Assembly (NCBI GenBank): GCA_964016885.1
Contig: OZ024747.1
Coordinates: 53,258,001 to 53,322,000 of the forward strand
DNA length: 64,000 nucleotides
Reading direction: 5' to 3'
Origin: Eledone cirrhosa
Taxonomy: Eukaryota
Made by a program: the position numbers and the translations under genes. Shown one piece after another: positions 2,989-53,112 of the stretch. Below the pieces are notes generated by a model that was not told the origin of the DNA, did not search any database, and saw only the letters and a list, made by a program, of their open reading frames with translations. Position 1 is the stretch's first letter. Every line of letters starts with the position of its first letter.

Positions 2989-3185
2989 TAGGAACCAGTA
3001 AGACCCCGACAGCTGAGCTCAAGCCGTTTCGACGGCTAATTCTGGACAGTCCAGAATTAGCCGTCGAAACGGCTTGAGCTCAGCTGTCGGGGTCTTACTG
3101 GTTCCTATTACCCACTCTACTACCTCAAGTATTGAGTACTTTGGTGCGTTATGGTCCACCTGGTTCCTTACCACATTTCCTTCGT
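2989..3185 (+). mobile_element. Hairpin+tail element (HHR 3'-half palindrome), copy 1
   Basis: Perfect 59-bp arms centred on 3048, 78-nt tail, embedded in (TA)n. Confidence 0.9.
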
Positions 3186-3938
3186 TATATATATATATAT
3201 ATATATATATATATATATATACATATATATATATATATATATATATATATATATATATATATATATATATACATATATATATATACATATATATATATAT
3301 ATATATATATATATATATATATATACATATATATATATATATATATACACACATATATATATATATATATATATACATATATATACCCGTCCATGTATAT
3401 ATACGTACATACATGCATGTGTGGATATATATATGTACATATATGTACGTATGCATATATATATACATATATACATGTATGTGTGCATATATATATAACA
3501 CATATTGTGAGAGAGAGAAAGAGAGAGATAAACAGAGAGATGAAAATGTAAATACAGACAGGGGGGGGGGAGGAAGAATGGAAGCCCAGAGAGAGGGGGA
3601 GGAGGTGATGAAATAACCATAGTTTAAATTATTTCCAGTAATGGTATCAACATTGTTATAACTTAAATGGAAATCAAGTAGTAATAGAAATAGTACTGGT
3701 AGTAGTAATAGTGGTGGTAGTAGTAATAACAGGAGTAGTGGTAGTCGTTAGCAGTAGTAGCAGCAGTAGTTTTCCCAAAGTTGTTCTTGTAGAACAAGTC
3801 TTCCGCATATATATATATATATATATATATATATATATATATATATATATATATATATATATATGTATATATATATATATATTATATATATATATCAATG
3901 ATATTAATAAATGGAAACTATATTTATAAAACGATATT

Positions 3939-3999
3939 TATTCTATTATATATATTTCAAGGGTACCAAAACTTTGGTACGCTCTCATCAGATAAAATA
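3939..3999 (-). ncRNA. Minimal type-I hammerhead ribozyme
   Basis: Inverted copy of 4106-4166. Confidence 0.8.
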
Positions 4000-4105
4000 C
4001 AAAGTTTTATTTTATAAATATTGACATACCCAGGAATGAGAACTTAACGGTCCAAAGTTTCAAGTTTCATTCCTGGGTATGTCAATATTTATAAAACAAG
4101 CTTTG

Positions 4106-4166
4106 TATTTTATCTGATGAGAGCGTACCAAAGTTTTGGTACCCTTGAAATATATATAATAGAATA
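4106..4166 (+). ncRNA. Minimal type-I hammerhead ribozyme
   Basis: TATTTTAT-CTGATGA-GAGCGTACCAAAG/TTTTGGTACCCTT-GAAA-TATATA-TA-ATAGAATA. Confidence 0.85.
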
Positions 4167-4564
4167 AATATGGTTTTATAAATATAGTTTCCATTTATTA
4201 ATATCAATGATATTATATTCCAGAAAATCTGTCGAGTGCTTCGAATCGGTTATAAATATATATATTTGTTGAATTACCAACAAATTCAATATCCCTTTGC
4301 TTATATATATATATATATATATATATGTAGATAAATCTACCAAGAGTTTACGGTAGTGTCCAATCCGTATGAAGAACTCAATGTAATCCGGATATCATGG
4401 AAAGAAGAGATGCAATGAAAAATCACTTTCGGTGAAAGATAAACGGAATACAGAGTCATTGTTTTATTCATTATTTTTTTAATATTTTATATATATATAT
4501 ATATATATATATATATATATATATATATATATATATGTATATATATATATATATATATATATAT

Positions 4565-5040
4565 GAGAGTATTAAAGTTTGCTTGAAGCATTGTGGAATA
4601 ATAAGATATATTTCTTTAGGTCGTTTTGGAAGCCTCAACAATGCAGATGGGTAATACTCCGGGTAACAAGATCCGGTGGTGAAGAGAAAGATTTAAGTGA
4701 ATGTAAATTGAGATGTATAGTGTGTAGAAGAGCGTAGGAAAGATATTCAAAACAACGAACAGCGGAGGACACGTTTCGCACCTTTCCGAAAGACAAACTC
4801 CCCCCCCCCCCGGAAAAACCCCCAGTTGATGGATGTGAATCCGAAATATATAGGGACAATTATATCTTTCCCAAGGTAACTCTATCTCGTGTTATTATTA
4901 TTTTTTTTACGCTCTTTCCTACGTTCTTCTACACACTATACATCTCAATCTACATTCACTTACATCTCACCACCGGATCTTGTTACCCGGAGAATTACCC
5001 ATCTGCATTGTTGAGGCTTCCAAAACGTCCTAAAGAAATA
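4565..5040 (-). repeat. Inverted-repeat element with one-sided tail in (TA)n
   Basis: Arms ~4608-4743 and ~4913-5040; tail 4565-4607 resembles 25707-25731. Confidence 0.7.
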
Positions 5041-5289
5041 TATATATATATATATATATAATATATGTATATATATATATATATATGTATGTTTGTATAT
5101 ATATACCCATATACATATATATATAAATATAAATATATATATATGTATGTTTGTATGTATATATATATATATATATATATATATATATATATATATATAT
5201 ATATATATATATATATATATATATATATATATAAATGAAAGGTATAGAAAACATTGTAGCAAAAAAAAAAAAAAAATATATATATATAT

Positions 5290-5378
5290 GTAGGAGGTGA
5301 GTTTTATTGTAGCACAATAAAGCAATGCAAATATCGGATAAGTAGCACTCAACAGTTTATAGGACTGGAGTATAAGTA
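5290..5378 (-). mobile_element. Inverted 3' tail segment abutting the truncated PLE
   Basis: Reverse complement closely matches 46431-46519, which also abuts a truncated copy of the same PLE family. Confidence 0.75.
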
Positions 5379-5399
5379 AGTGACTGGTTCAATGACCTG

Positions 5400-50506: not shown

Positions 50507-51099
50507 TTGATGATAATAATGATGATGATATATATATATATATATATATGTGAGTGTGTGTGTGTATGTGTATGCACATATATATATATATATATGTGTG
50601 TGTGTGTGTATGTGTGTATATATATATATATATATACCATCTTTGGGCCATAGACCAAATAATTGTTAGATATGTTATATATGTTCACTGTTTATGAAAA
50701 TAAAGTTAAATAGCTTTATACACACACACACACACACACACACACACATATATATATATATATAAGTTTATGTGCACGTGTGTTGTTCCTCCTTCCCACA
50801 CTCTATACACAAAAACACACAATCACCCACCCACATATATACATACATGCATGCATGTATAAATACATACAGACACACACACATATATATATATATATAA
50901 TATATATATATATATATATATATATGTGTATATATATCTATATATATATATACATATACATATATATATATATATATATATATATATATATATATATATA
51001 TATATATATATATAACGTATTTTATGTTTGTGAATTAATAAACAACAATCTTCTAACACATTTATTATTAATATATGTTTTGGTGCCGGTTTGATTGGG

Positions 51100-51530
51100 T
51101 GTATGTATGTGTCCATGTTTAGATGTGTGTATATGTGAGACAGAGTGTGTGGTTTGTGTGTGTATGTGTCCATGTTTAGATGTCGTGTATATGTGAGACA
51201 GGGTGTGTGTTTGTGTGTGTATGTGTCCATGTTTAGATGTGTGTATATGTGAGACAGAGTGTGTGTTTGAGTTTGTATGTGTCCATGTTTATATGTGCGT
51301 ATGTCTCAGACAGTTTGTGTTTGTTTGTGTATGTGTCCATGTTTAGATGTGTGTATATGTGAGACAGAGTGTGTTTGTGTGTGTATGTGTCAATGTTTAT
51401 ATGTGTGTATATGTGAGACAGAGTGTGTGTTTGTGTGTGTATGTGTCCATGTTTATATGTGTGTATATGTGAGACAGAGTGTGTGTTTGTGTGTGTATGT
51501 GTCCATGTTTATATGTGTGTATATGTGTAT
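51100..51530. repeat. ~58-bp TG-rich minisatellite
   Basis: Recurrent GTCCATGTTTAKATGTGTGTATATGTGAGACAGAG. Confidence 0.9.
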
Positions 51531-51852
51531 AAATTTATGTAGTAATATTAATAGATTTACACTATTAATGACAAAATGAAAAAGTAGCGTGAGAAGAACA
51601 AATGAGGATTGTTAGTGGTGAAAAACTGTAATAGCCCCCCCCCCCCCCCCCCACACACACACACTCACACACACACACACACACACACACACACACACAC
51701 ATATATATACATATATATATACATATGTACGTATGGGTTATATTGAACAATAATAATAATGTTTGATTCATTTCTAAACAAATGAGCCGATTAGAAGCTG
51801 TGCCAGGCTGGTGACCAATCGTCACCTGTTTGTTAAACACTGGCTTTGAGGA

Positions 51853-51895
51853 ACAATCAATATGTTTCTGGGTCATTACCCTTCATCAAGACTGT
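51853..51895 (-). ncRNA. Decayed minimal hammerhead
   Basis: ACAGTC-TTGATGA-AGGGT(AATG)ACCCA-GAAA-CATA-TT-GATTGT. Confidence 0.4.
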
Positions 51896-51919
51896 ATAAC
51901 TCTGCCAGTCTGTTAAAGG

Positions 51920-52065
51920 ATTTGGGACCTCGATGGCTGAGCTCCTGCCATTTCAACAGTTATTTCCGAACTAGATATAGCTGTTGAAACAGCAGGAGAT
52001 CAGCTGTTGAGGTCCCAAATCCTTCATATTACCACATTCTACTACCCCAAGTATTGAGTACTCTG
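51920..52065 (+). mobile_element. Hairpin+tail element, old diverged copy 8
   Basis: Palindrome 51920-52020; tail CTACTACCCCAAGTATTGAGTACT. Confidence 0.75.
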
Positions 52066-52079
52066 CAGAGTAAAGGTCT

Positions 52080-52630
52080 AACAGGTTTTTTCTGCATCCA
52101 TTCTGATTTATATATGTATGTTCAAAAACGAAAGAGAGGCGGTTTTCCTCTGTACAGTGTCTATGGTGAAAGAGGTTATATGGTGGACAAGATTGAGAGG
52201 ACTGAGGATAGATGCCTTTCTCTCCGGACAACAATTGATTCCCTTCTTTAAGTATCACTTTAGAAGAAGAATCAGAATGGAGAGAGAGGCACTGCACCCC
52301 AGTAAATTTACTGAAAGGTGGGTGAATGAAGCGAAAATGGCCCGAGTGATTGGGCCTTCTCTGTTTATAAGCCTGTAAGTTAAAGAAGAGAGCAAAAGGA
52401 AGAAAAGAGCACTTGCACAACACGCTCCTGAAGTTGAGGGTTGTTCTATCGACGGGGTATTAAACAACTCATTTGTGCCCCCCCCCCCTATTGGGGATTT
52501 CGATTGTTATAATTGTTTGTTTCAATATTTTTACACGACTGTATGTAAAATCCCCGGCATGTGTCTTTGTATTGTCCCCTTTTCTTGTGCGCCCTTGTGG
52601 CAAATAAAGAAATCTATCTATCTATCTATC
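52080..52630 (+). pseudogene. L1/Tx1-like LINE 3' end
   Basis: ORF2 C-terminal pattern VKEVIWWTR...F..RW; 3'UTR ending AATAAAGAAA(TCTA)n. Confidence 0.65.
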
Positions 52631-52642
52631 TATATATATAAT

Positions 52643-53112
52643 AATTATAATGAAATGACAGGAGGCTGGATTTGTGTAAATCCTTGAAAGGTTTATTATA
52701 TCAATGACCGGGTTCCGTATGAATCCGGTGATATCATCAGGTATTCGAAATATAATCGCTCCAGAGCGACCGGCTGAGGTTGAAGGAACAGAATAGCGGT
52801 CGCCCTCGGGTCCTCGATTTTCAGCCCCATGGATTCCATTACATTCACGTAATATATTTTGAATACCTGATGATATCACCGGATTCATACGGAACCCGGT
52901 CATTGAACTGATCATAGTATAATAAACCTTTCAAGGATTTACACAAATCCAGCCTCCTGTCATTTCATTATAATATTTAACTCCGTAATAGCACCACCAA
53001 CTACAAAAACAAAGACGGTTGAACTGCCTTACGTTGAGTACTCTCTATATTATTGCATTACGATTGACCATACGGAATAGACCAGCTCTATACAGTGGTG
53101 AACCTCAAACCG
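52643..53112 (+). mobile_element. Inverted pLTR pair + tail with variant HHR
   Basis: Arms ~52643-52752 and 52854-52974; ATAC-CTGATGA-stem II-GAAC-TGATCA-TA-GTAT at 52863-52920; tail ACTC (52980)...GAGTACT (53036). Confidence 0.7.

Follow-up and report, generated by a model that had tools for sequence, protein, structure and literature searches.

What decides where the copies of a retroelement end, if the sequence that marks the end lies outside the copy? The question is raised by a 64,000-nt window of the Eledone cirrhosa genome (NCBI GenBank assembly GCA_964016885.1, contig OZ024747.1, positions 53,258,001 to 53,322,000 of the forward strand; coordinates below are those of the window). The source genome is AT-rich (3.0 Gb) and abounds in (TA)n runs, and comparison of the window with itself reveals many short inverted insertions inside such runs. 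According to the accessible text of PMC8557442, an inverted arm with a one-sided tail is a known layout of Penelope-like retroelements (PLEs). An earlier note on this DNA had reported that in unrelated families the tail-less arm stops about 3–8 nt before an ACTC, which can pair with a downstream GAGT(R)CT, and had taken the pair for a conserved cis-acting structure that fixes an internal priming or nicking site. Below, E1 denotes the site at which tail-less arms end and E2 the end of tailed arms, while the motifs that follow these sites are called motif 1 and motif 2. Comparison of the repeats shows that Hydra-clade PLEs carry two tandem bulged stems between the hammerhead and the ATG and that copies end 2–9 nt before either of them; each stem is quite probably an RNA docking site, which makes the reverse transcriptase (RT) start just upstream.

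As read from aligned sequences, ACTC...GAGT forms the foot of a bulged stem with the pattern N-CUC-[stem-loop]-UN-GAG-N'-RCU, in which the RCU is conserved and unpaired; the complete consensus is N-CUC-[stem-loop, 5–59 nt]-U(U/C/A)-GAG-N'-RCU-N-U. Covariation was counted in 90 instances (47 first and 43 second copies), which were chosen by sequence boxes with no pairing rule, the first bulge base being fixed by the selection pattern. The best member of each family was used, with L268 and L269 counted as two families despite their common leader. Since MAFFT left mixed-length loops ungapped, pairs were counted from both anchors and on an equal-length subset. Watson-Crick pairing is seen for the outer pair in 79 of 90 instances (68 G-C, 11 A-U) against a permuted mean of 59.5, and for the first inner pair in 82 of 90 (59 C-G, 23 U-A) against 50.0. 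For the second and third inner pairs the counts are 52 of 88 and 32 of 54, with permuted means of 24.0 and 13.5, respectively. None of 10,000 permutations matched the observed pair counts, slid-partner controls stayed at chance, and a pair-counting tool was concordant both for 8 rows free of gaps and for 55 rows aligned by the model, the latter being biased toward the model. On a 34-family protein tree, built with no outgroup and no named references, the two sides of the first inner pair show 7 and 6 changes, which amount to 7 joint changes instead of the 13 expected under independence; thus, the switches are repeated, having occurred independently about six times, and coupled. In two families the core itself is swapped from CUC/GAG to UUC/GAA. 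Information content across 25 families is high at the two boxes only and remains at ~0.1–0.3 bits elsewhere. Both covariation of the flanking pairs above the permuted expectation and conservation limited to the two boxes are what the earlier note had looked to as support for its structure.

All ACTC/GAGT sites cited in that note are present in the sequence. The ACTC/GAG positions 3114/3134, 28874/28889, 28506/28530, 46437/46458, and 52980/53036 are confirmed, and the two suggested variants read ATTC (4217) and CCTC...GAGA (33778). The pair at 12380/12440 exists as well, but its 3' side reads GAGTAAC rather than GAGTRCT, and the two minus-strand sites are real but shifted, lying at 5371/5350 and 29868/29852 (the latter with a one-base bulge). 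The gap between arm end and motif measures 5, 3, 4, 5, 0–5, and 5 nt at 3114, 4217, 12380, 28874, 52980, and 33778, respectively. An adjacent tail-less arm, however, had been wrongly assumed at 5371 and 46437, where the tail-less end lies instead at the distal side of a long copy in inverted orientation (~8153 and ~44959), and at 28506 no partner arm exists, hence no gap can be measured. At 33778 the second motif of an element follows its tailed end, and the first motif of that element is located at 33664. The idea of a conserved cis-acting structure near the internal boundary is supported, with putative protein binding and priming, while the bulge with the unpaired RCU, the twin occurrence, and the marking of both ends had been overlooked.

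Positional enrichment was evaluated by searching, blind to the motif, for inverted arms with flanking TA in 1,284,000 bases, comprising the window and 122 ten-kb stretches (20 neighbouring the window, the remainder at round coordinates). The 399 raw matches were reduced to 141 by filtering and grouped into 55 clusters, in 16 of which CTC-stem-TN-GAG lies at most 16 nt from the arm end, compared with 87 of 11,000 shuffles (0.8%) and 273 of 20,000 random positions (1.4%); the enrichment anticipated earlier is therefore found. The distance from arm end to motif is 2–9 nt in 54 of 60 copies. Among the other 39 of the 55 clusters are spurious arms and different kinds of family with short tails, the short-tailed clusters being devoid of the motif, and three further clusters (F22, F23, and F35) have relaxed motif variants. 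A covariance model, also proposed in the earlier note and trained here on 8 instances from outside the window, places 16 of its best 17 window matches on motif sites. It discovers a new site at 49921 and misses long-loop copies and both motifs of the 33309 unit. Rfam reports nothing over the motif among 150 listed of 260 window matches, nor in ten loci, the listed window matches being mostly false matches to microsatellites. The motif is situated outside the hammerhead, on the same strand as the hammerhead and the open reading frame (ORF).

Full-length elements of the F37 type have the order hammerhead, E1, motif 1, E2, motif 2, ATG/ORF, and the same order is seen in F14 and in the 713-, 714-, 719-, and 785-aa families. 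Motif 2 was predicted behind the tails of four window families and was found genome-wide for three of them. The numbers of predicted motif 2 matches are 314 for F0, 41 for F1, and 104 for F8, with 0 for the reversed-pattern controls, and, apart from a single match in each family, those listed are read-through of F0, F1, or F8. Past motif 2, the sequences of F0 and F1 lead into Hydra ORFs. In 15 loci of F8 (L363–L377), in contrast, no ORF follows motif 2; this family, with a window copy at 52644–53115, retains both motifs and a long-stem hammerhead pattern and is likely a non-autonomous passenger. An initial metagenome scan with a single protein query detected no relatives. The relatives eventually collected from metagenomes comprise 78 loci (45–56% identity to the query), 53 of which have a 130 nt leader and form 38 families. 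Two motifs are present in 26 of these families, one in 9, and none in 3, the one- and zero-motif families being mostly truncated or mutated copies; the two-motif arrangement occurs in 6 of 3,800 shuffles and 0 of 540 ORF windows. The motifs are spaced by 57–169 nt, and motif 2 precedes the ORF start by 15–100 nt, mostly 15–52 nt. By eye, the published Hydra-1_Ajap consensus shows both motifs at its start and ends just before motif 1, Hydra-2_Amil and Hydra-2_Ajap contain motif 1, and Hydra-1_Crog and Hydra-1_Obim have altered forms of it.

The ends of copies follow the two motifs. When ten families were aligned to the genome sample, 81 of the 220 alignments were found to end at E1 and 91 at E2, and the last identical base mostly lies 2–9 nt ahead of the motif at both sites alike. 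Metagenome divergence points behave similarly, 18 of 30 falling 0–8 nt before a motif (7 at the upstream motif, 11 at the last motif found). In 87 of 90 instances a TA step occurs at most 12 nt upstream of the motif, against a background of 54% in leader windows. At least 2 bases are shared with the TA run at 52 of 73 arm ends in motif clusters, compared with ~8% of random leader positions; such sharing is also seen in the other clusters (42 of 68 arm ends). As neither motif is contained in the copy whose end it marks, the motif must act on the template or on an intermediate. The location of motif 2 in the 5' leader, mostly 15–52 nt from the ORF start, could also suggest translational control or ribonucleoprotein packaging, with the twin hairpins binding a protein near the start codon and the ends being set by UA microhomology alone; tandem bulged hairpins are indeed typical protein-binding sites. 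However, the distance from motif to copy end is far tighter than that from motif to ATG, TA is available in 54% of leader windows and yet ends occur at two places only, and the ORF-less F8 retains both motifs. We consider this explanation most improbable, whereas binding of the packaging type is compatible with RT docking.

Pairing of the ends is strict. The 62 head-to-head pairs include 61 of E1 with E2, one of E1 with E1, and none of E2 with E2 (75 ends are unpaired), while independent choice would give about half E1 with E2. Arms of one insertion are also closer to each other than arms of different insertions (0.041 vs 0.102, 0.011 vs 0.090, and 0.045 vs 0.063). Single priming followed by fold-back, in which RT starts at motif 2 only, the cDNA copies itself, and the second end stops near motif 1 because of bound protein or TA microhomology, would account for the 61 pairs, as well as for the equal arms and common variants of many palindromes, and self-priming has been proposed for PLE palindromes (PMC3846280). 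It does not allow an E1 arm longer than the E2 arm, yet such arms are found in several pairs and in two F37 insertions of the window, where tail-only E2 arms are joined to kilobase E1 arms, which excludes fold-back as a general route. Direct-orientation full-length copies also terminate at E1, and the geometry of E1 and E2 relative to their motifs is identical. Fold-back is rated as very unlikely. As a separate observation, short F0 arms mostly stop 59–69 nt upstream of motif 1, in the region of hammerhead stem II (L333, L394; window 3048–3066).

Judging by their sequences, the motif-bearing repeats are Hydra-clade PLEs wherever an ORF was found, and the families earlier described as unrelated thus share one clade. 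Its traits, as listed in the available text of PMC8557442, are RWK, DKT, a CxCx5C linker, no CCHH, CxxC and CxH flanking the conserved E and N, a hammerhead in the pseudo-long terminal repeat, and (TA)n targets. The intact F37-type copy L031 encodes a single 821-aa ORF with RT followed by a C-terminal GIY-YIG endonuclease (EN), and intact copies outside the window consist of the 821-aa frame, then a long 3' untranslated region (UTR), and then the hammerhead. In an alignment of the L031-type protein with 15 relatives, DKT replaces DKG, and RW(K/T/R) is found overall (RWT in L031, RWK in most relatives). By-eye comparison gives CNCRIKNKC for the CxCx5C linker of L031, with CNLC and CLH also present and no CCHH. 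The hammerhead core pattern is recognized in F37, F1, F8, and the 33309 unit as a pattern match, and the F0 core is degenerate (no CUGANGA). As for the target, 155 of 172 E1/E2 ends adjoin TA runs. The units of ~3.7 kb (F37) and 3.54 kb (F0) exceed, owing to long 3' UTRs, the <3 kb typical of Hydra elements, a length which the same source text gives with 'generally', i.e. as a tendency and not a defining trait. Pfam scan and PDB sequence searches with the element proteins returned no significant match. The best solved-fold match of the predicted protein fold (L255, predicted local distance difference test 93) is TERT.

Beyond docking itself, for which the odds are good, a more specific scheme would have the two tandem hairpins load two enzymes on one transcript, so that both target strands are primed at fixed sites outside the copied region; we regard its chances as even. 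The GIY-YIG domain would nick both strands of (TA)n, and each nicked 3' end would anneal by 2–5 nt to the UA stretch ahead of a motif. RT would dock on each hairpin and start 2–9 nt upstream, once per target strand, so that two enzymes, possibly a dimer, prime two cDNAs off the same transcript or donor, the far ends of which become joined; the tail would then be the spacer from motif 1 to motif 2. A homodimer prediction, run without an alignment, scored 0.00 and speaks neither for nor against a dimer. As the signal lies beyond what is copied, it is lost from every new 3' end, which would account for the dependence of active copies on a partial tandem or circular template. According to the portions of PMC11167929 consulted, RT of the Poseidon_Ac PLE starts in vitro at two positions inside the RNA, between which the tail lies, with cutting and extension of both strands of the target. 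The overlapping arms rule out, as the rule for these insertions, simple twin priming as in L1, in which the pieces do not overlap.

The main rival is EN cutting of a DNA intermediate: RT would copy past the motifs, and GIY-YIG would recognize the hairpin, be it in cDNA or in an intermediate made of DNA, so as to cut at the TA stretch upstream, one strand per motif, with the tail as a long stagger. Craig et al. 2021 attributed the tail to EN-mediated resolution of an intermediate (accessible text of PMC8557442), and cleavage by the D. virilis EN depended on the tail, according to a citation in the text of PMC11167929. The TA preceding 87 of the 90 motifs is moreover the target sequence, and strict pairing of E1 with E2 would be produced equally well. 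Covariation requires a folded single strand, however, and the Poseidon tail boundaries in vitro are RT start sites on an RNA template (PMC11167929, same portions). In addition, a tail-only E2 arm joined to an E1 arm of 1.5–2.8 kb (5288–8153, 44959–46522) fits two independent cDNAs. Overall, DNA action appears unlikely. The ratio of G-U to A-C mismatches, 14:7 for inner pairs and 14:11 with the outer pair added, is not decisive, so the choice between RNA and single-stranded DNA is not settled by sequence. The shortest motif loops are UUCG and GUAA (L239/L384; L387 motif 2). Both are stable RNA tetraloops, but the reverse strand of UUCG is also a stable DNA mini-hairpin, so they do not discriminate.

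Several results, including the ambiguous mismatch ratio, weigh against RNA docking with RT starting upstream. Stems are weak in isolation (z from +0.2 to −2.5), and the minimum-energy structure of 3 of 11 folded single-motif windows has no bulged stem; weak lone stems may nevertheless be what a protein-stabilized site would show. For the 29868 family no motif 2 was found, only microsatellite chance matches, with a pattern restricted to inner arms of ≤35 nt, which the inner arm of this family may exceed. The 758-aa family F5 ends at E2 before an ACTC that has no canonical 3' half, and 20 of 30 F5 copies (L199 and relatives) end at neither site. Further, 48 of the 220 alignments end elsewhere or read through, as do 12 of the 30 metagenome divergence points in falling elsewhere (internal palindromes and truncations included). 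Most E2 copies extend past site 1 and overlap the E1 arm, and one RNA would therefore need to be copied twice; many palindromes also have arms of equal length, as fold-back would yield too. Finally, no such motif is present in the Poseidon start region of Fig S1B, and it is thus not a universal PLE signal.

In comparison with the Hydra clade as described in the available text of PMC8557442, the present elements share RT-GIY-YIG, DKT, RW, CxCx5C, the hammerhead, (TA)n, and the inverted 5'-truncated copy with a one-sided tail. They differ by a motif spacing of 57–169 nt, compared with tails of 30–40 bp there, and by units of 3.5–3.7 kb. Figures aside, the word 'stem-loop' does not occur in the main text of that paper, nor 'stem-loop' or 'hairpin' in its supplement text. 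As for Poseidon_Ac (Frangieh et al. 2024, PMC11167929, in the portions consulted), the tail is likewise the interval between two start sites with both strands extended, a dimer is predicted, and the binding region is near the ORF start. The signal there, however, consists of a single AC-rich stem-loop that shows neither a consensus across families nor covariation, and the start site has no homology to the target, whereas in Hydra elements every site is followed on its 3' side by a separate conserved hairpin and shares a short microhomology of UA. The telomerase template boundary element, too, is a short stem with conserved foot bases, which is bound by a related RT and fixes a limit of copying (text of PMC4993307 consulted), but it lies 5' of the template and sets the stop, while the Hydra motif, being 3' of what is copied, would set the start. 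Correspondingly, most E2 copies read through motif 1, unlike copying that halts at a boundary element. The TERT fold match makes this a functional comparison with opposite polarity, and no homology is claimed.

Among other systems, stem-loops recruit RT in the 3' structures of long and short interspersed elements, two primings give inverted insertions of L1, and a bulged stem fixes the start in hepatitis B virus epsilon. In those systems, the signal either becomes part of the new copy or directs priming to the end of the RNA or into the bulge. The pieces that twin priming of L1 yields are free of overlap, unlike most Hydra arms. Non-LTR (long terminal repeat) retrozymes are short hammerhead tandem repeats derived from PLEs, which the 299-bp array L378 and F8 resemble, but the consulted parts of PMC7229834 and 10.64898/2026.07.22.740005 name no recognition signal, and the twin motif would be a candidate for the Hydra-derived ones. 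L378 (G000:C2:356029900–356032100) and L335/L336 consist of F0 units with internal deletions repeated in tandem (299 bp and 257 bp, respectively), which retain half of the hammerhead, both motifs, and the first codons, and are retrozyme-like. F22 (L046, L059, L079, and L400), with a UUC/GAA core variant, likewise occurs in short tandem repeats.

Table. Motif sites and associated features of the window
Feature	Positions	Strand	Basis
F0 head-to-head insertion in (TA)n: tail-less arm 2991-3047 (E1), tailed arm 3048-3185 (E2)	2991..3185	.	
Motif 1, F0 (ACTC / 14-nt inner / TT / GAGT ACT), 5 nt past E1 position	3114..3140	+	
Motif 1, F1-like insertion, ATTC variant, 3 nt past arm end	4217..4240	+	
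F37 insertion: tail-only E2 arm (minus, 5288 to ~5382) head-to-head with 2.8-kb 5'-truncated copy ending at E1	5288..8153		
Motif 1, F37 (ACTC CAGT..ACTG TT GAGT GCT)	5344..5371	-	
Broken Hydra-clade ORF remnant (RT, CxCx5C linker, GIY-YIG)	5376..7068	+	sequence
Type I hammerhead core pattern, upstream of E1	8062..8109	+	pattern match only
Motif 1, F0 insertion 11621-11821	11665..11691	-	
Motif 1, F19, 54-nt inner arm, 4 nt past arm end	12380..12446	+	
Motif 1, F0	25423..25449	-	
Motif 1, F0	27743..27769	-	
Motif 1 in tail-only piece with no partner arm	28506..28536	+	
Motif 1, F1 palindromic insertion 28703-28957	28874..28895	+	
Motif 1 variant, one-base bulge (29868 family)	29846..29868	-	
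Motif 1, F0	33216..33242	+	
Complete twin-motif unit: E2 arm in inverted orientation (33309-33353), then a read-through unit and a partial tandem with its end at E1 (34144)	33309..34144		
Hammerhead core pattern of 33309 unit	33508..33572	+	
Motif 1 of 33309 unit, compensatory core GTTC..TT-GAAC, 2 nt past E1 position	33664..33702	+	
Motif 2 of 33309 unit (CCTC..TT-GAGA), 5 nt past E2 position	33778..33798	+	
Motif 1, F0	34863..34889	+	
Motif 1, F0	44809..44835	-	
F37 insertion: 1.5-kb minus-strand copy ending at E1 and tail-only E2 arm 46425-46522	44959..46522		
Motif 1, F37 (ACTC CAGT..ACTG TA GAGT GCT)	46437..46464	+	
Extra motif copy missing from the earlier note, G-C outer pair (GCTC TGG..CCA TT GAGC GCT)	49921..49951	+	
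Motif 1, diverged F0 copy (ATTC)	52036..52062	+	
Motif 1, F8, 50-nt inner arm	52980..53042	+	
Second Hydra family remnant (785-aa type), hammerhead pattern at 58011, ends at E1	55916..58159	+	
Motif 1, F0	63611..63637	-	

Other repeats accompany the elements of the Table. A third GIY-YIG remnant is located at 43479–43901, with 37% identity to the end of the F37 protein. A minus-strand direct repeat (46577–46871 and 47043–47337) matches the Rfam hammerhead HH9 with 38.9 bits, below the gathering threshold, and represents a separate family. An abundant SINE-like repeat of ~190 bp is found at 28304–28503, 14882–15075, 39279–39469, 48301–48500, 62694–62893, and other places, and minisatellite arrays with 23-bp and 75-bp periods lie at ~16340 onward and at 40089–41472. 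Cluster F2 (L156, L075, and L101) is a PLE family with a different RT type, a 56-nt tail, and no motif; 8 motif 2 matches behind its tail were rejected as heterogeneous chimeras or chance. The short-tailed clusters F4, F12, F16, F17, F21, and F50 may hide clade-specific signals of their own.

Earlier work had already described the Hydra clade, its tail, and a pair of internal start sites, whereas the literature searched (with subscription papers, figures, Pyatkov 2004, and bioRxiv supplements outside the search) contains no description of the twin covarying motif and its link to both ends. PLE integration and the optional one-sided tail are named as an open problem in the available text of both key papers (PMC8557442 and PMC11167929). 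The motif, whose conservation extends from a cephalopod-like genome to elements of coral and sea cucumber, predicts both start sites within a few bases, so that the integration question becomes approachable by simple experiments in which the stems are mutated, compensated, and moved. If true, programmed double priming would account for the tail, for head-to-head insertions, and for the need of a tandem or circular template, and a portable 25-nt signal would set the start of reverse transcription. The same motif would identify the cis signal by which non-coding hammerhead repeats borrow the enzyme. It would also offer a point of comparison for the way in which a template is delimited by RNA structure among relatives of telomerase and, for insertion tools based on RT, a defined handle.

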